64,000 nt of DNA from Cetorhinus maximus (Eukaryota), in the NCBI RefSeq assembly GCF_964194155.1, contig NC_135891.1, forward strand, positions 110,856,001 to 110,920,000. The letters are read 5' to 3'. Below, one piece after another: positions 3,005-54,324 of this stretch. The first letter of the stretch is position 1, and every line of letters starts with the position of its first letter. A program made the position numbers and the translations under genes. Below the pieces are notes generated by a model, which was not told the origin of the DNA, searched no databases, and was given only the letters and a program-made list of their open reading frames with translations.

Positions 3005-3795
3005 GATAAAAGCAAAACTAAAAGCAAAATACTGCGGACGCTGGAAATCTGAAACAAAAACAGAAAATGCTGGAAAAGCTCAGCAGGTCTGACAGCATCT
3101 GTGGAAAGAGAAACAGAGTTAACGTTTCAAGGGCGTATGACTCCTTTTCAGAGCTAAAGAGTGGAAATGTGATGAAATTTATACTGTTTAAGGGGGATGG
3201 AGCAGGTGAAGCTGGATAGAAGGCCAGTGATAGGTCGGGACAAAGGAGGGATTGGCAAAGATGTCAATGGGAGCATTAATGGTAAAGATAAGAGCTAAAA
3301 AAGGTGCTGATAGTGGTGAAAAGGTAAGAAAGCAGAATGTGATAATAGCAGAACAAGGGTAGCATTATGTGAAAAAACAACATGGAACAAGTAACAGATG
3401 GCCCTTTTGGGGATGGGGTGGGGAGAAAAGGATAGAAAATGGGATGGGGGGGGGCATAAAACCATGAATAAATGAATAAAAATAAATAAAAATAAAAATA
3501 AGTGGATAAAAAATAAAAATGAATGTAGAAAAAAGGGATTAAAAAAAGGGGTGAAGATAAAGGAGGGAGTTTATGGTCTGAAGTTGTTGAACTCAATGTT
3601 AAGTCTGGAAGGCTGTAAAGTGACTAATTGGAAGATGAGGTGCTGTTTCTCTGGTTTGCGTTGGGCTTCACTGGAATATTTTAGCAGGCCAAGGATGGAC
3701 ATGTGGGCATGAGAGCAGGGTGGTGTGTTGAAATGGCAAGCGACAGGAAGGTCTGGGTCATGCTTGCGGACAGACCGGAGGTGTTCCGCAAAGCG
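3005..3795 (-). mobile_element. Penelope-like element fragment (GIY-YIG end plus terminal repeat)
   Basis: Reverse complement of the same sequence seen at 20120-20900 and 41440-42377, including the EHLRSVRKHDPDLPVACHFN-like stretch and the GCTGGAAATCT/CTCAGCAGGTCTGACAGCATCTG terminal block. Confidence 0.75.
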
Positions 3796-5116
3796 GTGCG
3801 GTGGAGAGGCTGCTGGACCTCAGCTGAGGAAGGATGCTCATTTTTGACAAGCTTTTCCAATTGCGTGGCCGCTTCCCTCACCACCACCCCCTCACCCTAC
3901 CCCCTGGCATGTGCTTGAGTATTTCCTTCAGGCCGTCTGCGGCGCTTTGGCAGGGGAACAGGGCTGAATCTGTTCCCAGGTCCTGCACACACCCCGGGGC
4001 TGAAACAGTCACTAATAGGGATTTTGGCTGGGGCGCCCCTTCAGTGCCATGGAAATGGGTTCCCCTGTCTGATTAAGGGCAGCGGGCAGGCTCTCAAAGC
4101 TGGCATGCCAATCAGAGCCCTTTCAGCTTCAGAGGAGCACTCGGCTGCAATGAGCGGAAAGTAACTGAAAGGGTGCATCTACGTGGAAGTACACTCTCAG
4201 CCACCTGAGAAAGTAACCAGGCCACCACTGTTGGCAGGAGGGGTAGTGGAGATGGAGGTGGGGTGGGGGGGGGGGGGGGGGGGGGGGGTTGGTGAAGAGT
4301 GGTGTTGGCAGGGAACCCTTTACAAGGCAGCCTTTGGCTGCACCCCAACCCGAGCAGGCACCCTCTAGACCTGCCTGGGACACTGATCTCACAGCCAGTC
4401 TCCTTTAGGCAATTGATCTGCCCCTCCACGCATCGGGAAACTGGAGGCCAAATGGGAAATCCCAGTTGGCCTTCTGAACTAACTCTTAACAAAGTTCTAA
4501 ACGAGCCTGATTGGCCCCCTCCAAGGATTTGGGAGACCAGCATGCCGGTCAGTTCCAGTATTTGCAGGCCCTGTCTGCCTCCTCAGAGGGACCCGGAAAT
4601 CCTGCCGCGGGTCAGATTACATTACTACTTCTATGCTGAGATGGTCATGATGCAGTATTTTGGTTTAATGAGAAAGTCAGGTCCCCATCCAACCAAGCAA
4701 GACTTGTTTAGATGCCATTTCCTGTTACTTGTGGGGTTTGGCACCACATGGAGTGTAACTCCAGTCAGGTGTAGAGCTAGGTTTCAAAAGGCTGGTCCTC
4801 TTGGCTACTTCGTAACTTTGTCAGCTTCCTTTTGTTGAGGAAGCAGATGTTCAAAAATTTACATGCTGGGATTGAAACTATGTGCATGCAACCATATATA
4901 TATGCTGAACTCTTCCCAATAGGCAGAGTATTATTCACAGCCCCGGGCTGATCATAATACTGTGTAGCTATCAGATTCGAGATTAATAGGCACTTGCATA
5001 TTTGGCACAGCTCCAAGTGAGATTAGGGAGAAGTGTCATAGGTGCCATTTCCCTTAGTGTTTATGCTATTAAAACCAGGATGGTGGGTTTTCCCAGGTTG
5101 ATCCAATACCATGGCC

Positions 5117-5360
5117 ATTAGGATAGGGTGACCATAAGCTCATGACCATTTAGAGATTGATAGATTCCTAGAACATTGATACTTGTACGAAGGTAATGCC
5201 ATCTGACAGCTTGGTCACATCACTAAACCCATCACAATCATCAAACTGGGTATGAATCAAATTACCCTGAAAACCCTCAGAGAAAAACACCAATAGTTTT
5301 CTCTTAAATGTAGCCACTGTTATCATGTAGGAACCAAACTCATGGTCACCCTATCCTAAT
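5117..5360. mobile_element. Small non-autonomous DNA transposon (MITE) with 19-bp terminal inverted repeats, hAT-like
   Basis: ATTAGGATAGGGTGACCAT at 5117-5135 is the exact reverse complement of ATGGTCACCCTATCCTAAT at 5342-5360. The TAGGGTGACCA core resembles hAT-type TIRs. Confidence 0.6.
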
Positions 5361-7596
5361 ATCTCTTTATGTGGCCTGGTGTCAACTTTTGCCTCTTGAT
5401 GTTCCTGTGAAGCAGCTTTGGACTGTATCACTTACAGTAAATGTGTTGCATAAACGCAAGTTGTTGTTGTAGCTGCACCTCCAAGGGCTTTTCTGTAACA
5501 CATCATTCTTACCACTGAGCCCAAATAACCCCCTTCATATAAAAATCAGAAAATGCTGGAAAAACTCAGCAGGTCTGGCAGCCTCTGTGGCGAGAGAAAC
5601 AGAGTTAACGTTTCGAGTCCGTGTGACTCTTAACCGGCAACCATTTAAAATTGACATGTTTGGATATGACCCTCTGTTTATTGGTGCGATTACAGTTTCA
5701 TTTTACGGGAATGTCGATGGAGATTATTTGAAATACAACCGTGTGTGACAAACAACCTATTACACACATTTGGTACCTTGAATATCAATGGTACAAAGGT
5801 AATCTTTTGTAATAAGCGTAATAACTTTCGTAAAAGTTTTATTTTATTGAACTGAAACCCCTTTCCCACTGCACTTGCTGGCGCATACAATAAAGTATCT
5901 GCAGTAACTTTATTATGTGGTTTCATTTTAACGTCTTTAACCTCACGATATATCAGCAGCCGGTGATTTCTCGGCAGTAGTTTACTTCTAACCCATTCCG
6001 GGAAGTCAATAATTCAGCTCCTCCTCCAATTCATCCTGAACTTGTCACCTGAGGTTTTAAAACAAAAACAGAACTACCTGAAAAAACTCAGCAGGTCTGG
6101 CAGCATCGGTTGACGTTTCGAGTCCTCATGACCCCCTTCAACAGATCTCAGTGGTTTTAAGGTTTTTTTTTTGGTTTAAGATTGCAATAGGTAAGCATCT
6201 TGGCTGCCTCGACACATTTACTGTTAAACAAAGCGTGTGACTGGTGAGATAAGGGATGAGTAAGGACATTTTAAACCGCAATTTCTTCAAACGGGATCAA
6301 AAGGTACTTGGAAACGTCTGAGGCTTGGATTTGGAAAGATTGTATCCCGGGACCGAATATTGCAACAGGCCGTTTTTAACTCCAGGTAACAGAATTAAAT
6401 CAAAAACATTTCGGGGTCAATTCTCTTCCAGGAATACCCGCCTTGAACAAAAACAGAAAGTGCTGGAAAAACTCAGCAAGTCTTGAGTTTTTTTCCCCCA
6501 GCACTTTTTGTTTTTGTTTCAGAATCCCAGCCTCCGCTGTATTTTGCCTTTATATACCCACCTTGAAGATATTCGGCTTTTGATGGAAGATCATCTACCT
6601 GAAACATGAGCTCCTTCCACCGAGGCTGCTTGATATGCTGAATATTAGATTTTAAACTGCTGCCGAATTTCGCTTTTTTTATTTAAAGTTCATGTTTGAG
6701 TGTTTCTTTTTCTGAAGGTCACCGACTTGCTGCATATTTCCAGTATTTTCTCTTTCCATTAACTTCTTGTTTTCAAGTCCAAACCCACTGTGTTTTTCCA
6801 CAATTATTTATTTATAATTCAGTATGGCTTTTCTTCCCCACACCCGCACTGTTGCCCCTGGAGTTCCCCCAAGGATCTATTCTCGACTACCCTCCCAGTT
6901 CTCAGCTACTTGCTGTCCCAGGGCAACTTCATCCCCACCCCACCCCACCCCACCCCCCAAAAAAAAGCGTCAGGTTCAGCAGACCTGCTGACTGCACCCA
7001 GCTCTACCTCAAACATCCCTTAACCTTTCCATTGCATCCGACCTGTCACGCTGCTTTTCCCACGTCCAGTTTTGGATGAGTAGACATTGGCTCCAAATCA
7101 TCATATTGTGAAGACCTAAGCTGTTGTGCTCTGCCTGTGCTACAAACCCCATTCTCCAGCCACCAATTCCATCCCTCTCCCTTGCCACTTCCTGAGGCTG
7201 AGCCCCGACAGTTGGCAACCACAGCTTTCTATTTGGCCTTGAGCTGATGAAACTTGGTGCTACCTGTACCCAAACCCATGCCAAGGTCTGCTCCGCCATC
7301 ACTGAACAGCGTGCCTTAATCTTAAGATTCTCATGCTTGCAATCAAATCCCTCCGTGATGGTGTCTCTCCCAATCGCTGCAGCCTCTCTCAGAACTCTGG
7401 TTCATCGACCTGAAACGTTAACTCTTGTTTCTCTCTCTCCTCAGCTACTGCCTCACCTGCTGAGTGTTTCCAATATGTTGTTTTTATTTCAGTTTTCGAG
7501 CATCTGGCTTTTGTGTCAACAGAAACAAGTGTTTATTTCTGAGACGAGATGGATAGGACAAACTGACTTGAGCTTAATTATGTAGATAAATGTTGA

Positions 7597-20900: not shown

Positions 20901-20930
20901 TCCCTTTTTTCAAATGGATTAGGAATCATT

Positions 20931-21280
20931 CGGGCTGCCAACTGTAATTAAATGTATTCCTGGAGGTTTCATCACATGACTTGCTTTTGCCATTAGTTGG
21001 CCAACACATCTATCCTCGTGACGTGCTACCTTCCTTCGCCAATTGGAAAGCAAGGAGACTCATTCCCCAACTGGATGATGCTCGACTGTTAGCCAGACAG
21101 CCTTTTTGCCCCCATTTTCAATATTCTTATATCTGGCAAAGAGAAATGTTCAAAGAAAATGACAAATAAATCTTTTAATGTCCCTATGATTTTTCTCCAA
21201 TGTTGTGCAAAGCTGTGTCTTGGAGATTAATCTTCAATTACTAGAGACTCCACATCAATCCTGGAGGATTGGCAACCCTA
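20931..21280. mobile_element. hAT-like MITE
   Basis: GGGCTGCCAA and TTGGCAACCCTA termini. The paralogous copy (54325-54698) is interrupted at its left TIR by the 11-kb retroelement cluster. Confidence 0.5.
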
Positions 21281-30020: not shown

Positions 30021-31095
30021 CTGAAAAACATACAATACTTAAAACCAAGCCAGCGTTCATTTACTATAATTATTCCTCAAAGGTCTGAAGGGACGTTGTT
30101 ATAACTGGCACTAAATATAAAATAATCTACATTCAAACCAGTTTAATAGTTTGTGCTAATTCATAAACACCTATTTAGACAATCCAATCTGCAGAAATTC
30201 TAAAGTAACAGTGTTTCAGCTGAATCACAATATCCTGAAGCACAACAGCAACAGGATGCTTGGAACAGCTCAAGTTATTTTATGCCTTTTTTGACGCCTC
30301 ACTCATCTGTATTAAAGGATTAAGTGGGCAACACAAAAGGCAACACTCTTTCCATCTGCTATGCCACACCACATAAACAATGGTAGCTTTGTCAAAATTA
30401 TGATTGTTCACATTTAATGTTAAAAGTACCACACAGCCATCTAATTTCTACTGATTAAAAAAAATGCAACATTTTTTCTATATTGGTTAACACACAGCCA
30501 CTGAGCAACTTGGATGACAGAGACAAGAGAAAAAGCAGTAGAAAGAAGAGACCTGATAACTTTGCATTTCTCACTTCCTAAATCATTTAATTTAACAGGA
30601 ATTGCCACACCATTAAAAATAATTTAACAACCCAACCGCTCCAATGTTGTTCACAGAGGCAAACAGCCTCTTTCAGGAGAAGTTCAACCACCACATGCAA
30701 AAAGGAATTTCTTGCATCCCTTGCTAAATGACACCCAGGTTAGTATGCAAGAATCAGAGCATCATTCACATGATGTTCCATTACTTTGTGCACACAGGGA
30801 GTCGTTCAGAGCAAACCTGCAATTCTTTGCCCCAAGGCAGTGTTGAGGACCCAAGCAAGGCCACTGTAACATACAATAAGGGGATCTGAGCCAAAGATCA
30901 AAGGAGGGAAGGAGGGGCTTCAGCAATGCAGTAGATTATGCATGATAAATATATTCATACAAAAAATCTTTAGGTTCCAGCCTACTGCAATGGGAAGTGA
31001 GAAAGATACCAAGTTCCAGATCTGAAAAATAATCACTTTAAGTCAAGCAATACTGGAATTTATTTTATTTGCACAACGTTTCCATCGTATACTAT

Positions 31096-34276: not shown

Positions 34277-35356
34277 CTGAAAAACATACAATACTTAAAA
34301 CCAAGCCAGCGTTCATTTACTATAATTATTCCTCAAAGGTCTGAAGGGACGTTGTTATAACTGGCACTAAATATAAAATAATCTACATTCAAACCAGTTT
34401 AATAGTTTGTGCTAATTCATAAACACCTATTTAGACAATCCAATCTGCAGAAATTCTAAAGTAACAGTGTTTCAGCTGAATCACAATATCCTGAAGCACA
34501 ACAGCAACAGGATGCTTGGAACAGCTCAAGTTATTTTATGCCTTTTTTGACGCCTCACTCATCTGTATTAAAGGATTAAGTGGGCAACACAAAAGGCAAC
34601 ACTCTTTCCATCTGCTATGCAACACCACATAAACAATGGTAGCTTTGTCAAAATTATGATTGTTTGCATTTAATACTCAAAGTACCTCACAGCCAGCTAA
34701 TTTCTGCTGAGTAAACAAATGCAGCATTTTTTCTATATTGGTTAACACACAGACACTGAACATCTTGGATGACAGTGACAAGAGTAAAAGCAGTAGAATC
34801 AAGGAATCCGATAAATTTTCTATTTCTCACTTCCTAATCATTTCATTTCTTAAGAGCGATTGTCACACGATTAAAAATAATTTAACAACTCAACCGCTCT
34901 AATGTTGCTCACAGAGGCAATCAGCCTCTTTCAGTTGAAGTTCAACCTCCACACGCAAAAAGGAATTTCTTGCACCCACTTGGTAAATGACACCCAGATT
35001 AGTCTCCAAGAAACCAAGCAGCATTCACATGGTGTGCCATTACTTTTTGCACACGGAGTTGTTGTGAGCAAACATGCAATTTTTTGCCCCAAGGCAGTGT
35101 TGAGAACCTAAGCAAGGCCACTGTAACAAAAAGGGAAAGGGCTTCTGAGCCAAAGATCAAAGGAGGGAAGGAGGAGCTTCAGCAATGCAGTAGATTATGC
35201 ATGATACATATATTCATACAAAATATCTTTAGGTTCCAGCCTATTGCAAAAAGGAGTGAGAAAGCTACTTAGTTCCGGATCTGGAAAAAATAAGCACCAA
35301 GTCAATTGGTACTGGAATTAATTTTATTACACAATATTTCCAACGTATAATGTTTA

Positions 35357-42377: not shown

Positions 42378-43355
42378 TAAGGAACCCTCACTCTGGTCTC
42401 AGGCACATTAGAGAGAATGTGCTGTTGGTCAGTGGGGACAATCTACTTTTCCAGAGGGAAACAATGAATGGTGCGGTGTAAAGTACATCGAAAAACACCA
42501 TCAACTTTCACATTTTTCTCTGTTTAAAAATGTTTGATGCTTCCCCAACAACAGGTCCTGGTTTAAAAGGTCTCGCCATCAGTTCTCATTTCTCTCTCTC
42601 AACAGTTCGTTGATGTTGATAACTCGGTTGTATATTTTTTTTTAGATGTTACACAAGGTCCCAGAATCAGGACAGTGCAGCCTTGTCGATGTTGCCTTTG
42701 GGGAAACTCCAGGCATCAGGGGCTGGATTCCAGCGCTAAACTCAACTGACGATTTCAAAGCCGGCCGGTTCTGACATTAAAGTCACTGCGGCACCAACTC
42801 TTAACCTTTCCACCTCCCCAAGTATGAAGGCAACCGGGCCAATTTTTTAAAAAACTGTCCTTTCCCAAACTTAAGGAGTAACCGCCGCTGCCGCATATTA
42901 CACGTTCATTTGGGTCAGCCTGCGGCCCACAGAGACCTGCACCCGGTTCGATTAACATTAAACCGAATTTCTCCAGACAATAACCGGTGAATCTTATAGC
43001 TTAGACTCCGCTCTACAACATCTTTGCCGATACGGCAGCTCTGGCGTTAATCTGAGAGCGGATTAACAAGGATTGTGTTGGACTCTCTGAGCACCGCCAT
43101 CTGCAAACACCCACCATTTTCACCCGGTCTCGCTGGAAAGGACAAACCTCGTTTCCGCTGCGGCAAATATCGCGGGATTTGGGCCTGGATTGGGAGGGGA
43201 GGAGCCATTGGCCCACCGCGCGTGCGCACACCCACCTGACTCTCTGATCCAGCGCAGAGGCTTGGACTTGTTCTGGTTGAAGAGCCCCTTTTTTCAAATG
43301 GATCAGTAATCATTAGGGGGAAGAGTGTCCTGCAGTCAGATCTTATTGAAAATAA

Positions 43356-43710
43356 CAGGTCTGGCCGATGGGGAAAGGTCACTGTCTAAGACCTTTCTGC
43401 CATAGCACAGGAGCGCAGTCTCAATCAATGTGTGGGAATCAGATAGCTTCCCTATTAAACCTGGAGTCAGGCAGGGCTGCCCTCTCTCCCCTGTCCTGTT
43501 TGTGTGTTGCATAGAACCTTTTGCTGTGTCCATCAGGAAGGATCCGGTCATCAGGTGTGAGGCACTCTCACTGTTGCTGTATGTGGTGCAGGTCTGGCCC
43601 ATTCCACACTCCTGCGCTGTGGCGATCACTCGAGCCATCTTTCGCTTTATCTGGAGGTCGAAAATGGATCGTGTCCGCAGGGACGCGATGTACAAGCCTT
43701 TAGATAAAGG
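43356..43710 (+). mobile_element. Scrambled Tx1-like (L1 clade) LINE fragments
   Basis: Non-collinear pieces matching the Tx1-like copy at 48076-50147: the ORF2 end (ATGGGGAAAGGTC..), RT GVRQGCPLSPVLF, then a jump to VIRCEALSLLLY..MYKPLDKG. Confidence 0.8.
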
Positions 43711-46704
43711 CTTTAGATAAAAGCAAACTTCAAAGCAACTCAGTTGGCGTACAAAACAGACAGGAGAAAGATAGCACGGCAAATCATGGGTGCACCATCC
43801 ACTCTACAATGTCCACTTAGCAAAGCTGAACTCGAAGAGAGCTTTACAGATAACATCTCAAAACCAAATAATAAAGCAAACCTCCAAAAGTTTGCATTAT
43901 ATAAGGGAAGGAGAGATTACGACTCTTTGAAAGAACCCATACAGAAGGAAGAGGTCGAGGAGGCAATTAAAGACATTGATAAGAACACGGCAGCGGGACT
44001 TGATGGGATGAAGTTGGAAGATATCACGGACATCCAGGCAGAGTATGAAGACAGGCTCCCAAATCTCTTCTCCCTCTGACTCAAGTCAAGTTCTATCCCA
44101 AGGGTCTTGAAAAAGAGTTGCACGGTTCTCATTCCTAAGACAGACGACAGCGAGAAACTGAGAAGCATAGACAACTGGCAACCAATAACGATCGGCCCGA
44201 TTTTATTACGGCTCTTCACTAAGATCATCGCCAAACGCTTAAGTGAAGCAGTCCAAATCAACCCCAGACAGAAAGGTTTCTGGTGGCGACTCCTGTAATG
44301 AGAACATCACAGTTCTGAGTAACATCATGAAAGGGGCCAAACGCAAGAGGAAAGAGCTGGCCATTGTCTTTGTGGATCTGGCTAAGGCATTCGATTCCGT
44401 AGGGCATAAAATGCTCATCAAAGCACTTCAAAGAGTGGGGCTGCCAAGAAGATTCATAACAATGATCACAGATCTGTATTCGGAAACTAGCACATGTATG
44501 GAATGTAAAGACGGTCAAACGGAACCTATCAATATCACGAGAGGGGTCAAGCAAGGTGACCCATTATCACCAATCCTGTTCAACAATGCGATGGACCCTC
44601 TGATCTGTTCCCTACAGGAGGCACAGTTGGGCGTCCACTTGCCCTTCCGGGGAATGCAGATTAGTTGCTCAGCTCTGGCATTCGCTGATGACATTGCTTT
44701 ACTCAGTGACTCCCATGCCGGCATGACCAAGAGCTTAGCCATCGTACAGGACTTCTGCCAGAATATGGGGTTGGAGATGAATGCCGGGAAGACCAAGGGC
44801 TTCCACTTCATCCACAAGAGGAAGACGTTTCTGTACCAACAGTATGGTGAACTGGCAGTTGAGAGGAGGTCCAATCTCTTACGTAACACCAGGAGAGACA
44901 GAGAAATATCTGGGAGCCAGAATCGACCCCTGGGCAGGGGTGACTGAGGAGCAATGGGGATCCAAAATCGATGGATGGATAGCGAATTTGAAGAGGGCAG
45001 CACTTCGAACTATCCAAAGGATCGAAATCCTTAAAACCCACAAGATTCCGTGAACCTACTTTCATTTAATCCTCGCAGAGGTATCGCAAAACACGTTGGT
45101 AAAACTTGATCAATCCATTAAAAACGCAACTTAAGAAACCCTCCACCTTCCACCGCACATAATGGATGGAGTATTCTACAGCAGCAACCACAATGGTGGT
45201 CTAGCCATGCCGTGACTTGAAGTCCAAATTCCTTCGGCCATTATTCGGAAATTAGAGGCATTGGAGAGCTCACCAGATGGGGTGATACAGGCCTCGTTTG
45301 AATTCAGTGGCATCAAGAACAAAGAGACAATCGACTCCCTGAGGAATCTTAAAGTGCTCAGGGAAATTGAAAAATCCCTCAAGGAGAAGGGTGGTCCAAG
45401 AGGGACGCATGAAGGAAATGGCACTGATGAAGTCATCAATTTGGGGTGGATGGATATTACCCAAACGTCCAGACCGAAACCTGTTAACAGATACGCGGCT
45501 TGGAGGGACGTTGAATATTTAAAGTGGACCGCACTCCAATGCCAAGGAACGGGCATCAAATACTACGGCAATGACTATGCTTCAAATTCCTGGCTCAGAA
45601 CTTGTTTTAACCTCAAACAATCCAGACTCATGAACAGTATTTTATTATAGTGTAATCTCTATCCAACGAGATCCACCTAAACAGGGGAAGACACCACACA
45701 AACAAGCCTTGCAGATGATATGAGGCCCCTTTCGAATCACTGGCTCACATCTCCGGTATCTGGTCGTTCATTAAAAACGCCCGGATCAAAAGACATAATA
45801 AAATCCTGGACCACTTGCAACAGTTTATCTCCAAGTACAGCTGGACATCTCGCTTGGAACCGAGACTCTTCAGAAAGGACAGGACCCTCTGGAAGCCAGA
45901 CCTGGTACTCGTCAAGGATGGAGTAGTAGCGTTTGATGATGTCACAGTGCAGTTTGAGGACAATAACAAATTGTTGGAGAAAGCTTGGGCAGAGAAAGAG
46001 CGAAAGTATCAACACCTGAAGGACGAAATAAGAGAGCTGACTGGGGGTACGTCCATAAATTTCTTCGGATCTGTCATGGGAACAAGAGGAATGTGGCTCG
46101 ACTTGAACAACAGCCTCGTGCAATTCCTGAAGATCCAAAAATACAAGTCCTTCGCCCAACCTATCTCGAGACTGACGATCTCTCTGACCTTGGAACTTTT
46201 GCAAATATTTGGAGACCAGTAATCAGAGAATCGTTCAGCAGAGCTCACCTGGTTCGGTATCGCAAGACCCAAGATGAAGGATTGGAAGGTGCTACGAGAA
46301 GGGTATTGTATATCCCCAGATTGAGAAGTCCAACTCCTGATCCCCGGTGGGCAGGTAAGGTGGATAATTTGTTTATATATGTTTGGTGATCATGTTTAGT
46401 CTAGCATAACGATTTTGGCAATTACCTTGATCATTATTTTGGGTGGTGGGTGCATGATATTAATTATAAATGCATTAACTGCAACGGCATTTCCTTTGTT
46501 AATGTAAGTAATTAATAAAGAGGGCATCACAATCAGATGATGTAATTCAGGGTACGTCTGCGGGCCGCTAACTATGTGATTGGCTACCTAGTATCATCAG
46601 TACCTATGTGACGAACATTCACGCTTGGTTGACATCGAGGATCATGGTCAGTTATTCCTGAGTCCAATCAGGATTGGGTGCTGCATTAATTGTGCGTATT
46701 AAAT
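43711..46704 (+). mobile_element. R2 non-LTR retrotransposon, 5'-truncated and decayed (RT, restriction-like endonuclease, ~480-nt 3' UTR)
   Basis: RT motifs NWQPITIGPILLRLF, INPRQKGF, FVDLAKAFDSVGH, GVKQGDPLSPILFN, LAFADD, KYLG. Degenerate CCHC/RHN region, then KPDLVL..DDVTV..KERKY endonuclease; stop at 46220-46222. The 3' end abuts TAGCCAAATGCCTCGTCA, the canonical R2 28S target junction. Confidence 0.92.
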
Positions 46705-47038
46705 TAGCCAAATGCCTCGTCATTTGATTAGTGATGCTCATGAATGGATGAACGAGATTCCCACTGTCCCTACCTACTATCTAGTGAAACCACAGCCAAG
46801 GGAACGGGCTTGGCAGAATCAGCGGGGAAAGAAGATCCTGTTGAGCTTGACTCTAGTCTGGCACTGTGATGAGACATGAGAGGTGTAAAATAAGTGGGAG
46901 GCCTTGGCCGCTGGTGAAATGTCAGTACTCTTATTGTTTTTTCACTTACTCGGTGAGGCGGGGAGGCAAGCCCCAAGGGGCTCTCGCTTCTGGTCGGAAG
47001 CGCCCGGGCGGCCAGGCGTGACCCACTCTGGGGACAGT
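46705..47038 (+). rRNA. 28S rRNA gene fragment (pseudogene, ~334 bp) starting exactly at the R2 insertion site
   Basis: TAGCCAAATGCCTCGTCA..ATGAATGGATGAACGAGATTCCCACTGTCCCTACCTACTAT..GAAACCACAGCCAAGGGAACGGGCTTGG..CTGTTGAGCTTGACTCTAGT..GGGGACAGT is conserved LSU rRNA sequence, here with CpG-type substitutions. Confidence 0.95.
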
Positions 47039-47039
47039 A

Positions 47040-48018
47040 TAGCAGAGAAACACCCTTGACCAAGTCCATCAGGCAGTGGTCGGCACGTAATGTCTTAGAG
47101 GCCCTGCAGGAAAAGGAGATGGTGGATCCTGTCGGATGGTTCCCCGAGCAGACTGTCAAAGTCATTTGGTAGAATGCCTCATCGCCAGAACTTTCCAACA
47201 AGCACCAAGATGTAGCTTGGCTGGTGGTGAGAAAGACCCTCCCCGTCAGATCCTTCCAACACGCCAGGAGTCTCACCCCCTCTGCACGTTGTCCTCGAGG
47301 TGGCTGTGGTGGGGATGAGACCGTTGTTCACCTCCTTGCGGATTGTGCCTTTGCAAAGAAGGTCTGGAGAGAGATGCAGTGGTTTCTGTCGAGGTTCATC
47401 CCGGGCAGTTCTGTGACACAGGACTCTGTGCTCTACGGGCTGTTCCCAGGGACATACACCGAGACAAACGTCAACTGCAGCTGGAGAATCATCAACTCGG
47501 TGAAAGACGCTCTTGGTCTGCCCGAAACCTGTTGGTCTTCCAGTGCAAAGAGTTGCCCCCGACCGAGTGTTGCAGACTGGCACGTTCCAAGGTCCAGGAC
47601 TACGTGCTGAGGGACGCACTAAAGCTTGGGGCAGCCGCTGCAAAGGCGCAATGGGGAAAGGTCGCTGTCTAAGACCTTTCTGCCATAGTGCACTGAGGGG
47701 CTGGGGAAAGGTATAGACCCCTCGGGCTGTACAGCTCACAATGAATGTATGCATTGAATACTAATTGTATTATAATTGTATTGGAGCACCCCAGAGTGCA
47801 ACATGATGTATGATTGATAACTCCAATACCATTGCACTGCCTGACTGTCTGTAATGACCATATTGAAATGACTGTAATATTCATTGATTGTACTGAAGCA
47901 CCTCGTGATCCATGTGTAAAAGTTCAATCTGATTGCACTTTTTGTGATGGTGATTTAGAAATGTTTTGTAATGTTCTTTCAGATATTTTATGAATAAAGT
48001 ATATTTTTCAAAAAAAAA
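47040..48018 (+). mobile_element. Tx1-like LINE 3' end with poly(A) tail
   Basis: Zinc knuckle [19 protein letters not shown], 3' UTR, AATAAA and A-run at 48010-48018. Closely similar to 49180-50147. Confidence 0.85.
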
Positions 48019-50147
48019 ACAGGTCTGGCCCATTCCTCACTCCCGCGCTGTGGCGATCACCCGAGCCATCTGGAGTTGGTGATCCACCCTGACCAGATCT
48101 GCGCTGTGCCGGGCAGGAAGATCTCTGACAGCCTTGCGCTGCTCAGGGATACGATTGCCTGTGTGCAGGACAGGGTTGTGGACACCTGCCTCATCAGCCT
48201 GGATCAGGAGAAGGCCTTTGACAGAATATCACACACCTACATGGTGGACGTGCTCTCCAAAATGGGGTTTGGGGAGGGAATTCGCAACTGGATCCAACTG
48301 CTCTACACTAACATCAGTAGTGCAGTCTCAATCAATGGGTGGGAATCAAAAATCTTTCCAATTAAATCTGGAGTCAGGGCTGCCCTCTCTCCCCTGTCCT
48401 GTTTGTGTGTTGCATAGAACCCTTTGCTGAGTCCACCCGGAAGGATCTGGGCATAAGAGGAGTGACGATCCCAGGCAGTGGAAGCACTCAGGTCAAAGTC
48501 TCCCTGTACAAGGACGATGTCGCCGTCTTCTGCTCGGATCCGCTGTTGGTGCGCAGACTGATCCACATCTGCGACCAGTTCGAACTGGCCTCGGGAGCCA
48601 AGGCAAATCATGGCAAGAGCGAGGCCATGTTCTTTGGGAACTGGGCTGGCCGATCCTTTGTCCCCTTCACCGTTAGGTCAGATGGCCTGAAGGTGCTGGG
48701 GATATGGTTCGGAGGGACCGGGGCATACGTTAGAAATTGGAAGGAGCGAGTGTCTATGGTGGAAAGAAAACTGGGCCTGTGGGAACGACGCACTTTCTCC
48801 ATTGCGGGTAAGAACCTGGTCATCAGGTGTGAGGCACTCTCGCTGTTGCTGTACATGGCGCAGGTCTGGCCTATTCCCCATTCGTGCGCGATGGCGATCA
48901 CCTGAGGCGTCTTTCACTTTATCTGGAGGTCGAAAATGGATCGTGTCCACAGGGACGCGATGTACAAGCCTCTAGATAAAGGGAAAAAAAATGTGCCCAA
49001 CATCGCCCTCATCCTGATGGCCACCTTTGTGTGCGGCTGCAACAAGCTGTGCGTAGACCCTCGGTACGCAAACACCAAGTGTCACTACGTGCTGAGGTTC
49101 TACTTGTCCCCCGTGTTGTGAAGGATGGGTCTGGCCACACTGCCGTGCTGCACCACCTGTCCCTCGTGGAAAAATTTATGCAGAGAAACAGCTTTGACCA
49201 CAAGTTCGTCAGGCAGTGGTCGGCATGTAACATCCTAGAGGCTCTGTGCGAAGAGTTGGTGGATCCTGTGGGATGGTTCCCTGAGCAGACTGTCAAAATC
49301 ATTTGGCATAATGCCTCATTGCCAGAACTTTCCAACAAGCACCAAGATGTAGCTTGGCTGGTGGTGAGAAAGACCCTCCCCATCAGATCCTTCCTACACA
49401 CCAGGAGTCTCACCCCCTCGGCACATTGCCCTCGAGGTGGCTGTGGTGGGGAAGAGACCGTTGTTCACCTGCTTGTGGAATGTGCCTTTGCAAAGGTCTG
49501 GAGAAAGATGCAGTGGTTTTTGTTGAGGCTCATCTTGAGCAGTTCTGTGACACAGGACTCTGTGCTCTACGGGCTGTTCCCAGGGACACACACTGAGACA
49601 AACATCAACTGCAGCTGGAGGATCATCAACTCAGTGAAAGACACTTTGGTCTGCCCGAAACTTGTTGGTCTTCCAGTGCAAAGAGTTGCCCCCGACCGAG
49701 TGTTGCAGACTGGCACATTCCAAGGTCCAGGACTATGTGCTGAGGGACGCACTAAAGCTTTGGGCAGCCGCTGCAAAGGTGCAATGGGGAAAGGTCGCTG
49801 TCTAAGACCTTTCTGCCATAGTGCACCGAGGGGCTGGGGAAAGGTGTAGACCTCTCGGGCTGTACGACTCACAGTAAATGTATGTAGTGAACAGTAAATG
49901 TATTAAATTGTATTGAAGCACCTCAGAGTGCAACATGATGTATGTCGATAACTCCAACCCCATTGCACTGTCTGACTGTCTGTAATAATCATATTGAAAT
50001 GACTGTAATATTCATTGATTGTATTGAAGCATCTTCTGATCCATGTGGAAAAATTGAATATGATTGCACTTTTTGTGATGGCCATTTAGAAGTGTTTTGT
50101 AATGTTCTTTCAGATATTTTATGAATAAAGTATATTTTTCCAAAAAA
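48019..50147 (+). mobile_element. Tx1-like LINE, 5'-truncated, decayed ORF2
   Basis: [66 protein letters not shown], followed by AATAAA and an A tail. Confidence 0.88.
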
Positions 50148-50149
50148 CA

Positions 50150-53100
50150 AGAGTGACATCACAAGACAACGCGAGAGAGCGGCGGAAAGATCAGAACCAG
50201 TGTGAGTGCGGGGTAGCTTCAAAAAGTGACGTCAGCACAAAGGGGAGAGCTGATTGGTGAGCAGTGGGTAAGTGTTTTTCTCCAGTTTAAAATAGATTAA
50301 GCTAAGGAAAGGTAAGGGTTCCAGATTTTATTTAAAGTACATAAATAATTTAACTTTTTTTTACTGTATTTAACTTAAAGTAAGGGTTTTTTTCAACCAG
50401 AGGCATGGTAGGGCAGCTCAGTCCCGTGTTATGTACCGCCTGCAACACGTGGGAAGTCCTAGACGCTCCTTGTGCTCTGACCGACCACGTGTGCAGGAAG
50501 TGCCACCAATAGCAGCTACTTGAGCTCCGAGTTTGGAGCTTGAGCGGCAGCTGGAGGCACTGAGGTGCATCCGCGAGGCTGAGAGTTTCGTGGATAGCAC
50601 ATTTTTAGACGTGGTCACCCCACAGCTTACGGAAGTACAGACGGAGAGGGAATGGGTGATCATCAGTCAGAAGAAAGGTGTCAGGCAGGTAGTCACGAAA
50701 TCCCCAGGGTGCATCTCACTCGAGAACCATTTTTCTGTGTTGGAAAACGGTGAGAGTGACGGTTCCTCTGGGGAGTGCAGCCACGCTCATGGCACTGTGA
50801 GTGGCTCAGCTGCACCGCGGGGAGGAGAAAGAGGGGAAGAGCAATAGTGATAGGAGACTCGATAGTAAGGGGAACAGACAGGTGTTTCTGCGGCCATTGA
50901 TGTAACTCCAGGATGCTATGTTGCCTCCCAGATGCCAGGGTCAAGCATGTCACTGAACGGCTGCAGGGCATTCCAAAGGGGGAGGGCAAACAGACAGAGA
51001 TCGTGGTACATATTGGTACCAACGACATAGGTAGAAAGAAGGATGAGGTCCTGCAAGCAGAATTTAGGGAGCTAGGAAACATTAAAAAAACAGGATCTCA
51101 AAGGTAGTAATCTCTGGATTACTTCCGGTGCCACATGCTGGTGAGTGTAGAGATAGGAGGTTAGCCCAGATAAATGCGTGGCAGGAGAGATGGAGCAGGA
51201 GGGAGGGCTTTAGATTTCTGAGACATTGGGACCATTTCTGGGGGCGGTGGGACCTGTACAAGGCAGACGGGTTGCACCTGAAATGGAATGGGACTGACAT
51301 CCTTGCTAGTGCTGTTGAGGAGGCTTTAAACTAACTTGGCAGGGGGATGGGATCCTGATAGGAGGTTCAGCAGGGAGAGATGCACAGCCAAAATTAGAAG
51401 AGAGAGCAAGTGAGTCTGGAAGGCATAGAAATTATAGGCCAGTTAAGGCACAAGAGAGCTTGGCAAGGTTGGATGGTATTTATTTTAATGCAAGGAGTCT
51501 GACGAATAAGTTGAGGGCACAAATTAACACATGGAAGTATGATGTTATTGCTGTCACAGAGACATGGTTGAGAGGGAAAGGGTTGGCAGCTCAATATTCC
51601 AGGATATAGGGTCTTCAGGCAAGACAGGGAAGAGGAGGGGGTATCGCAATATTGATCAAGGAATCAATTACAGCAGTAAGGAGGAATGACATCTTAGAAG
51701 GCTCCTTAAATGAAGCCACATGGGTAGAACTTAAAAACAAAAAAGGAGCAATCACATTGTTGGGAGTGCGCAACAGGCCCCCAAACAGTCAGTGAGAAAT
51801 AGAAGAGCAGATATGTAGACAAATTTCAGAGAAGTGTAAAAATAATAGGGTAGTAATAGTGGGGGATTTCAACTTCCCCAACATTAACTGGGTTAGTCAT
51901 AGTGTGATTGGTTTAGAGGGAGCAGAATTCTTAAAATGCATCCAGGAGAGCTTTTTAAGCCAGTACTTAGAAAGTCCTACAAGAGAGGGGGCGGTCCTGG
52001 ACTTAATTTTAGGGAATGAAGCTAGGCAAGTGTTGAGGTATCAGTGGGGGAGCATTTTGCAGATAGTGATCATAACTCCGTTAGATTCAAGGTTGTCATG
52101 GAAAAGGGCAAGGATGGGCCAGAAATCAGAGTTATAAATTGGGGGAAGGCCGATTTTAGTAAGATCAGATATAATTTGACCAGAGTGGACTGGGAGCAGC
52201 TACTTTTAGGTAAATCTGCGTCAGAGCAGTGGGACTTGTTCAAGACAGAAATAGGGAGAGTACAGGGCCAACATATTCCAGTAAAGACAAAGGGTGGGAC
52301 CAACAAATCCAGGGAATCCTGGATGTCGAGGGATATACAGGATTGGATAAAGAGAAAAAGGGAGGCTTATAGAAGATACCGAGGGCTCAAAACAACAGAA
52401 GCCCTAGAGGAGAATAGAATGTGCAGGGGGGAACTTAAAAAGGAAATTAGGAGAGCAAAAAGGGGGCATGAATAAACATTGGCAGGTAAAATAAAGGAAA
52501 ATCCAAAGTTATTTTACAAGTACATTAAGAATAAGAGGATAACTAGGGAAAGAGTAGGGCCCATTAAGGACCATAGTGGTAATTTATGTGTGGAGCCGGA
52601 AGGTGTAGGTAGGGTTCTAAATGAATACTTTGTGTCAGTGTGCACAAGTGAGAGGGACAACGTGGGTATGGAAATCAGGCAGAAGGACTGTGATATAATT
52701 AAAGAAATTAGCATAGAAAGGAGGTTCTAAGTGATCTGGCAGGTTTAAAAGTAGATAAATCTCCAGGCCCAGATGAAAAGCATCCTAGGCTGTTGAGTGA
52801 AGCGAGGGAGGAGATAGCAGGGGCGCTGGCAATAATTTTCAATACCTCTCTGGCCATATGAGAAGTGTCAGAGCACTGGAGGACAGCCAATGTGGTACCA
52901 TTATTCAAGAAGGGAGGAAGGGATAAACCAGGGAACTACAGGCCAGTCAGTCTAACCTCAGTGGTGGAGAAACTATTGGAAGCAATTCTGAGGGACAGAA
53001 TTAATCTACACTTGGAGAAGCAGGGATTAATCAAGGACAGTCAGCATGGTTTTGTTAAGGGGAGGTCATGTCTGACCAATTTGATTGAATTTTTCGAATA

Positions 53101-54324
53101 GGTGACCAGGTGTGTAGATGAGGGCAATGCATTTGACGTGGTCTACTTGGACTTCAGCAAGGTTTTTGATAAGGTCCCACATGGGAAACTGATAACGAAG
53201 GTAAGAGCCCATGGGATCTAAGGCAATTTGCCAAATTGGATCCAGAATTGGCTGAGTGGCAGGAAGCAGAGGGTGACGATTGAGGGGTGTTTTTGTGACT
53301 GGATGCCTGTGTCCAGTGGGGTTCCACAGGGATCGGTGTTGGGTCCCTTGCTGTTTGTGGTATATATAAACGATTTAGACTTGAATGTAGGAGGGTTGAT
53401 CAGTAAGTTCGCGGATGACACGAAAATTGGTAGGGTGGTAAATAGTGAGGAGGATAGCCTTAAATTACAGGAGTATATAAATGGGCTGGTCAGATGGGCT
53501 GATCAGTGGCAAATGGAATTTAATCCGGATAAGTGTGAGGTGATGCACTTGGGCAGGACAAACAAGGCACGGGAATACACAATGAATGGTAGGACCCTGG
53601 GAAGTACCGAGGATCAGAGGGACCTTAGTGTGCATGTCCACCGGTCCCTTAAGGTAGTGGTACAGGTAGATAAGGTGGTTAAGAATGCATATGGGATACT
53701 TGCCTTTATTAGCCGAGTCATAGAGTATAAGTGCAGGGAGGTTATGCTGGAACTGTATAAAATGCTGGTTAGGCCACAGCTAGATTATTACGTGCAGTTC
53801 TGGAATCCGCATTATAAAAAGGATGTGATTGTATCAGAGTGCAGAGGAGATTTACCAGGATGTTGCCTGGGCTGGAGAGTTTTAGTTATTAGGAGAGATT
53901 GAATAGACTAGGGTTATTTTCCCTGGAGCAGAAGAGATTGACAGGGGACATGATGGAGGTGTATAAAATTATGAGGGGCATTGATAGGGTGGACAGGAAG
54001 GAACTTTTCCCCTTGGTTGAGGGCTCAATAACCACAGGCCATAGATTTAAGGTAAGGGGCAGGAGGTTTAGAGGGGATGTGAGGAACAATTTTTTCACCC
54101 AGAGGATGGTGGGAATCTGGAACTCACTGCCTAAAAGGGTGGTAGAGGCTGATACCCTCATAACATTTAAGAAGTATTTGGATGCGCACTTGCGATGCCA
54201 TGGAATACAAGGCTATGGGCCTCGTGCTGGAAATGGGATTAGAATAGTTAGGTACTTGTTTGACCGGCGCAGACTCGATGGGCCAAAGGGCCTTTTTTTG
54301 TGCTGTAGACCTCTATGACTCTAT
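50150..54324 (+). mobile_element. Near full-length CR1-like LINE (ORF1 zinc finger + SGNH esterase; ORF2 APE + RT), decayed
   Basis: ORF1 has CxxC..CRKC, GDSIVRG, IVVHIGTNDIG and DGLHL. ORF2 has GDFNFPNINW, SDHN, NYRPVSLTS, QHGFVKGRSCLTNL, GVPQGSVLGPLLF and KFADD. The 3' tail is (CTCTATGA)n. Multiple stops and frameshifts. Confidence 0.92.

Follow-up and report, generated by a model that had tools for sequence, protein, structure and literature searches.

Introduction

The site-specific retrotransposons R2 and R1 are also found outside the ribosomal DNA (rDNA) of Drosophila, often in other repeats (Stage and Eickbush 2009, PMC2718515). That report describes truncated R2 5′ junctions at which target bases are deleted or duplicated and microhomologies of 1-5 nt occur, and some of the R1 strays carry downstream 28S sequence of at most 14 nt. 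Here, we describe a dead R2 copy joined to 28S ribosomal RNA (rRNA) sequence that lies inside a Tx1-type long interspersed element (LINE) of Cetorhinus maximus. The window, which is the whole 64,000-nucleotide stretch that was analysed, runs from position 110,856,001 to 110,920,000 of contig NC_135891.1 (G000:C13:110856001-110920000; genome of 4.0 Gb). The locus resembles the Drosophila strays in its position outside the rDNA and in the kind of its 5′ junction, whereas its 28S part is 334 nt long (54-694 nt in sister copies of the same genome) and its host is a Tx1 copy flanked by a target site duplication (TSD).

Two kinds of LINE chimera are also close to this structure. In human 28S rRNA/LINE-1 chimeras (PMC13174262), a 28S fragment immediately precedes the 3′ part of a LINE, mostly in sense and within one TSD, as in the window; the chimeras described there are without R2, their 28S is defined as a 5′ addition and the LINE does not resume upstream. 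The tripartite chimeric retrogenes WEIRD/Mg-SINE/MGL and B2/U6/L1 (Gogvadze 2007, PMC2104539) likewise combine parts from several RNAs, all in the same orientation and inside a single TSD, but in the examples given there three different RNAs stand in a row with no return to the same LINE, so a later insertion is no alternative in those cases. The unit in the window has features of a LINE template-switch chimera in that there is one TSD, one orientation and a LINE 3′ end with poly(A). Its foreign part does not form the 5′ end without collinear LINE sequence upstream, since Tx1 resumes collinearly 222 nt upstream.

R2 machinery is also known to act at non-rDNA sites that are little like its target, both in the avian R2 off-targets of PRINT (PMC11371274) and in the R2NS families (PMC5035012). 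The PRINT off-targets arise from a designed template at a level of 0.1-1% and the R2NS families have lost specificity, whereas the present genome keeps an rDNA-resident R2 with an open frame. R2 in cartilaginous fish, with co-existing lineages, has already been reported. A search with little reach into subscription papers turned up no earlier case of an R2-28S block within Tx1. The structure is real and is a new example of known processes. Our favoured reading, to which we give a probability of about 0.6, is that an R2-28S read-through complementary DNA (cDNA) was inserted ectopically, as a second step, into a Tx1 copy (copy A) already in place.

R2 and 28S Replace a Segment of Tx1 Copy A

Tx1 positions are given as coordinates on a natural full-length copy of the family (L079, ~5.35 kb), which the Tx1 pieces of the window match with E-values of 1e-10 to 0, not by chance. 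Together with its poly(A), which ends at 48017-48019, and a 13-bp target duplication (AACAGGTCTGGCC, 43354-43366 and 48018-48030), copy A spans 43354-48030, and R2 and 28S stand where 222 nt of Tx1 should be (Table 1). An earlier reading, made from the sequence alone (the sequence-only reading), had described all segments as lying in the same sense, with the Tx1 3′ end and poly(A) followed, reading back, by 28S, R2 and then Tx1 again about 200 nt further 5′. The mapping bears this out, with every part on the + strand and a step from 4411 to 4188 on L079, which is 222 nt (197 nt against the neighbouring copy), and the whole unit lies inside one Tx1-type target duplication. The start of R2 had been placed at 43711 and has to be moved to 43719, since 43711-43718 are duplicated Tx1 sequence. 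As for two further Tx1 pieces called non-collinear, 43368-43405 is indeed out of order, and 43408-43547 proved to be collinear with 43548-43710 across a 369-nt deletion. This deletion lies between similar sequences; internal deletions occur in 14/94 other Tx1 loci, three of the 14 having the same one. Copy A is best read as an ordinary 5′-truncated Tx1 (3517-5386) with one 5′ snippet, one 369-nt deletion and a 222-nt segment swapped for R2-28S. Contigs from four sequencing runs, compared with 43000-44500, bridged none of the junctions and are uninformative either way, and none of 24 public runs checked held half of the query words.

The R2 part contains 3 frame changes and 6 stops. Its identity is 88-92% to dispersed R2 copies and 76-78% to rDNA copies, and the RT (reverse transcriptase) and C-terminal region is homologous to residues 454-1287 of the rDNA-resident open reading frame (ORF; 72-82% identity, tblastn). 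The N-terminal zinc finger/Myb region and the 5′ ribozyme are not present in this 5′-truncated copy; weak C2H2 and Myb matches are found in an rDNA copy (L037), whose R2 (L037:2947-7656) has an open 1287-aa frame. R2 occupies at most ~9% of the assembled 28S units. About 84 nt of the R2 3′ untranslated region (UTR) are swapped for 9 nt at 46663-46671, which include an inverted copy of the adjoining sequence and form a fold-back repair scar. The R2/28S junction is that of the rDNA-resident copies L036-L038, and the 28S part differs from rDNA at 10/284 non-CpG and 12/50 CpG positions. No upstream 28S lies beside the R2, whose flanks are Tx1 inside a CR1 element and not an rDNA unit. Sequence of the R2-28S co-transcript type is supported as the source of the block.

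At the right junction, 28S is followed by ATA and then by Tx1, with no clear homology. At the left junction, Tx1 ends in CCTTTAGATAAAGG, followed by CTTTAGAT and then by an A-run common with R2 (3-4 nt of microhomology). The 11-bp direct repeat previously reported here (CTTTAGATAAA, 43698-43708 and 43711-43721) is present, and both of its copies have a T where the Tx1 family has C; the T occurred in 0/39, then in 2/91 other Tx1 copies. Hence, the filler template already carried the T. This favours copying from genomic DNA after copy A had aged, or a later deletion that took 222 nt of Tx1 together with the 5′ part of R2, and it supports a second step, as the T is expected in both copies if the filler was copied from already mutated genomic DNA. 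A later tandem duplication is an unlikely origin of the repeat, as 1-2 additional changes would be required and the end of the first copy is that of Tx1.

R2 and R2-Joined 28S Lie Outside the rDNA at Many Sites

With three R2 probes, the candidates numbered 154, 149 and 161; the best 40 for each probe were scored, and all of these lie outside the rDNA contigs seen in the 28S searches. Many of the candidates belong to amplified segments, so the independent insertions are fewer. Among 19 dispersed R2 copies examined, six interrupt a single host repeat, and the target gaps there run from -3 to +10 nt. R2 is in sense to its host at L028, L034 and L118 and antisense at L030 and L119, and an antisense R2 cannot derive from a template switch on the host RNA. 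At L028, a full-length R2 lies at a CR1 site that resembles the R2 target. The layout of L118 is like that of the window, with R2 and 215 nt of 28S in sense inside CR1, a 1-nt gap and no Tx1. R2 leaves the rDNA without Tx1.

One full-length dispersed R2 carries a 1-kb insert and has been multiplied many times as part of a larger repeated segment (L033, L034, L035 and L039; contigs C144, C227, C410, C459, C499 and C26 near 41 Mb), and a second cluster of at least eight copies is found on C3 at 7.9-9.4 Mb. At L027 and L239, dispersed R2 lies between long direct repeats of target DNA (~60 bp, ~250 bp).

The two 28S probes lie downstream of the R2 site and are blind to upstream sequence, and the second search listed exact matches only. 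They found 16 loci on chromosome-scale contigs: R2 is directly upstream in 12, one has an unidentified insert and three begin downstream of the site. Two of the 12 R2-joined loci are whole orphan units, and another two were assigned to R2 from short or distant matches. One further locus found by the R2-junction pattern and two found by the exact empty-site pattern bring dispersed 28S to 19 loci. In the rDNA contigs, the exact empty site is present in 246/271 matches; at most 25/271 units lack it (2/18 among those read directly) and could carry R2 directly upstream. When orphan units are excluded, 11 R2-joined versus 2 empty dispersed loci stand against 25 versus 246 in the rDNA (p 2e-9), a test in which one of the 11 came from an R2-directed pattern and the occupancy of the rDNA is that of today.

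This enrichment of dispersed 28S for R2 upstream points to R2's own protein. A LINE taking up rRNA at random should yield mostly R2-free 28S, so the 12/16 R2-joined loci support an R2-driven insertion; the census would be predicted by a preference of R2 for its own RNA and not by random rRNA capture by Tx1. The 28S tails behind R2 measure 54, 90, 126, 152, 172, 197, 215, 236, 334 (the window), 353 and 694 nt, which places the window inside the range of the other 10, and the hosts of R2/28S pieces include CR1, Penelope ends, a satellite and unassigned DNA. One of these loci, L245, has the R2 3′ part and 694 nt of 28S at the centre of an inverted Penelope-end repeat. Two loci without R2 are LINE-type rRNA retrocopies: at L248, a 28S fragment of 123 nt has a poly(A) and is flanked by a duplication of 13-15 bp, and at L244 a 28S fragment and the 5′ part of a short interspersed element (SINE) lie within a 16-bp duplication.

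No other locus links 28S to Tx1. Tx1 directly follows 28S in 0/18 other dispersed 28S loci, the window being the only case among the 19, and 0/94 other Tx1 loci (247 kb of Tx1) hold 28S or R2. The R2/28S junction pattern occurs at four loci, with Tx1 only at that of the window. An amplified chimeric family is rejected as far as tested, as the junction query spans both sides only in the window among the best 40 of 2773 candidates.

The sequence-only reading had attributed the capture to the Tx1 RT and had seen in it a way for R2 to escape the rDNA by hitch-hiking on a LINE. Neither idea is supported: dispersed 28S is enriched for R2, the proposed search for other Tx1 copies with rRNA or R2 inserts gave 0/94, and R2 and R2 with 28S occur outside the rDNA at many Tx1-free sites. 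Moreover, with no second chimera found and the R2 dead, nothing active escaped, and the case for an escape route is weak under every model.

The same census bears on a capture at the DNA level, in which a double-strand break in copy A would have been filled with a piece of an rDNA unit carrying R2, without reverse transcription. Orphan rDNA units with inserts do lie on chromosomes (L237, L238, L252), and the templated filler, the 222-nt loss and the fold-back scar resemble end-joining. However, random rDNA fragments would be mostly R2-free (~91% of units today), unlike 12/16 of the probe-found loci, and the short tails and truncated 5′ ends are as in cDNAs. We regard such a capture as improbable.

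As a single locus, the chimera is a dead fossil of known processes, and the wider census is more useful. The 28S pieces downstream of the R2 site are mostly R2-headed and extend for 54-694 nt, and thus form a natural record of R2 misfires and of templates that run into 28S. This bears on R2 3′-end formation and on the off-target behaviour of R2-based gene insertion.

One Step or Two

In the favoured two-step reading, R2's own protein would have copied an R2-28S read-through RNA at a nick or break in copy A. Off-target reverse transcription may have started at a free RNA 3′ end within 28S, with the addition of a few non-templated bases. The truncated R2 5′ end adjoins upstream Tx1 as described above, and it would have been joined there via the A-run of 3-4 nt and an 8-nt copy of upstream target, while the 222 nt of Tx1 may have been lost at the insertion or in a later deletion.

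The ages of the parts were compared by divergence. At non-CpG positions, it is 3.5% (10/284) for 28S and 3.1-3.4% for R2 from the majority of dispersed copies. For Tx1 A it is 23/900 private and 42/900 all in the right part and 7/272 private and 10/272 all in the left part (2.6-4.7% over the pieces), and copy B has 74/1890 private differences. The expectation that the Tx1, R2 and 28S parts would be of similar age is thus upheld, at ~3% each. CpG differences are 12/50 in 28S and 12/93 in Tx1 A (p 0.10). The R2-28S block is not younger than Tx1 A, in agreement with a single event and compatible with two in close succession. There is also no TSD of its own around the block, and the left and right Tx1 A pieces, which are short and have no linked haplotype in common, show no clear split in subfamily or age; neither finding that the sequence-only reading had named as fatal to it was made. 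R2 makes little or no target duplication, so the missing TSD cannot separate the models.

Several points weigh against a second step driven by R2. At the six other sites where it can be measured, the gap is -3 to +10 nt, far less than the 222 nt lost here, and the Tx1 site has no clear likeness to the 28S target except for a TAGC made by the extra A. The Tx1 family covers ~0.2% of the genome (a rough estimate from 3950 candidates), so one Tx1 hit among 11 tailed copies would be a few-percent event, and it is in sense. The 28S divergence (3.5%) is close to that of Tx1 A (2.6% private, p 0.42; 4.4% all, p 0.62), and with ages so alike the second step must have come soon after Tx1 A. Today's 9% occupancy of the rDNA by R2 may understate the past level. 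As evidence the rare T is weak, at ~2:1 by our estimate; the source element could itself have been variant at this base. Finally, the family builds mosaics: the 5′ snippet of copy B has two adjacent variants in common with A and not with B, suggesting that a switch from one Tx1 RNA to another did take place here. Rough expected counts under the R2-driven and the Tx1-switch models are small and overlapping.

It is possible, and we hold it tentatively, that the block came in the same event as Tx1 A, with the intermediate going out onto an R2-28S RNA polymerase I co-transcript and back, or being handed to the R2 RT and back. If so, one insertion was written from two unrelated retrotransposon RNAs and rRNA, and together with the 10 sister fossils (28S tails of 54-694 nt) it would record where the unprocessed template RNA of R2 naturally ends in the germ line of a vertebrate.

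In the first form of such an event, the Tx1 RT would have copied 976 nt of Tx1 RNA, switched to the R2-28S co-transcript (3.3 kb) and returned to Tx1 RNA 222 nt further 5′. This would amount to a template switch in vivo, out to the RNA of a second retrotransposon and back. The single 13-bp duplication round the whole unit, the common sense orientation and the equal age are in line with this, and so are the mosaics common in the family (internal deletions in 14/94 loci, stacking in 13/94), the RNA of the B snippet, which is related to A rather than B, the unusually large gap and the low odds of hitting this family. LINE machinery handles rRNA in this genome, as L248 and L244 show; human L1 makes 28S chimeras (18 loci, 83% sense; PMC13174262), and double switches are known (PMC2104539). 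However, in the chimeras described in both reports the foreign RNA is 5′, not in mid-LINE with collinear resumption. Against this form also stand the absence of rRNA or R2 from the 94 other Tx1 loci and of Tx1 downstream in the 18 other dispersed 28S loci, and the capture of an RNA in the rare R2-joined form. Both copies of the repeat have the rare T and the filler retains the G at the end of Tx1, which would suit left-to-right DNA synthesis better than cDNA synthesis. On balance, we consider this form rather unlikely.

In the second form, an R2 protein bound to its own R2-28S RNA would have extended a stalled Tx1 cDNA end, or repair would have joined two cDNA intermediates present at the same time. 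This would account jointly for the R2 enrichment, the equal age, the sense orientation and the gap; R2 proteins are described as jumping between templates (PMC3414825; PMC11371274), and L1 intermediates as recombining with each other (PMC13526784). There is, however, no direct sign of such a hand-off in the window, further Tx1 priming would be needed for the left part, and the long homology that is described as favouring L1 recombination is absent. It is the least probable of the readings considered.

Locus Setting and Order of Insertions

An empty site is preserved in a duplicated segment of the window, where 20902-20933 joins directly to sequence matching 54325 onward, so that 43320-54324 is inserted material throughout. 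Tx1 copies A and B have a common insertion point within the CR1 head, and AACA is present at 43354, 48018 and 50146. CR1 came first, as the empty site indicates; Tx1 B then entered the CR1 head and Tx1 A followed at the same point, as the duplications indicate. The R2-28S block would be the last arrival, after Tx1 A. AAGAGTG was rejected as an outer target duplication, as it is part of the CR1 head repeat. A single continuous cDNA for A and B is less parsimonious than nesting, since the 13-bp duplication has the length usual in the family and reaches into B.

Table 1. Features of the locus (positions in the window; Tx1 positions in brackets refer to L079).
Feature	Position	Strand	Basis or remark
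CR1 head (part of 41-bp 5′ repeat unit) that flanks both Tx1 insertions on the left	43320..43357	+	Matches sequence upstream of AAGAGTGACATC in 11/11 other CR1 copies
13-bp target duplication of Tx1 copy A, left copy	43354..43366	+	Identical to 48018-48030; family duplications 11-20 bp
Out-of-order Tx1 snippet (5024-5061)	43368..43405	+	E 8e-10; same position also kept in A 3′ part
Tx1 A, 5′-truncated start (3517-3656)	43408..43547	+	Mapping to L079
Tx1 A, collinear continuation (4026-4188) past 369-nt deletion	43548..43710	+	Mapping to L079
Filler copied from Tx1 13 nt upstream	43711..43718	+	With A-run common to Tx1 and R2 makes 11-bp repeat
5′-truncated dead R2 (residues 454-1287 of rDNA-resident ORF)	43719..46704	+	Pfam RVT_1 E 8e-30; tblastn
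28S rRNA sequence, 334 nt, begins exactly at R2 site	46705..47038	+	Rfam LSU match; 93-94% to rDNA
ATA at 28S/Tx1 junction: non-templated, or Tx1 AT + one extra A	47039..47041	+	
Tx1 A 3′ part (4411-5386) with poly(A)	47042..48019	+	Mapping to L079; zf-RVT E 1.5e-8
Target duplication of Tx1 copy A, right copy	48018..48030	+	Identical to 43354-43366
Out-of-order Tx1 snippet (4067-4118) at 5′ end of copy B	48020..48071	+	94% to A left piece, 81% to B's own copy
Tx1 copy B (3271-5386) with poly(A), at same CR1-head point, first in	48069..50149	+	Sequence mapping
Remainder of CR1 element hosting both Tx1 copies	50151..54324	+	RVT_1; empty site at ~20933

Stacking of Tx1 copies, as in the window, occurs in 13/94 other loci of the family. 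Stacks at one target are seen at L086, L094, L104, L150, L190 and L191 as well as at 43354/48018/50146 of the window, and the inner duplications often stop exactly at the start of the earlier copy. L191 has three Tx1 copies with a 7-9 nt target piece repeated. This pattern could mean that the RT reloads within one event. The CR1 family that hosts Tx1 copies (L126-L136) carries a 41-bp unit repeated in tandem within the 5′ head; a tandem repeat scan gave nothing in the region. Elsewhere in the window, two SNORA13 matches (30209-30342 and 34465-34598, - strand) lie within a patchwork segmental duplication (~12747-33989 versus 35197-62907).

The Host Tx1 Family

The Tx1 label rests on domain content and on the name given in the sequence-only reading. 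Pfam finds an ORF1 with zinc knuckles, an APE endonuclease and an RT in the full-length copy L079, and the family has poly(A) and target duplications of 11-20 bp. A 5′ head of ~36 nt from U2 small nuclear RNA (snRNA) is present in the full-length copies L078, L079, L080, L087, L090 and L109 (Rfam U2 positions 1-36, E 1.4e-6, under the gathering score). The family is like the Keno/Tx1-clade elements (PMC4494074, PMC4640811) in its ORF1 zinc knuckles, APE, RT, poly(A) and U2 5′ head, and unlike Keno in being dispersed, not in U2 genes and with no U2 sequence after its copies. The 3′ flanks of the copies are varied, with no U2 at gathering score in six long Tx1 loci. From its dispersal and these flanks, the family is not shown to be a U2-specific Keno. 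At L111:8095-8256 (- strand), an Rfam U1 match lies exactly where a long Tx1 copy breaks off.

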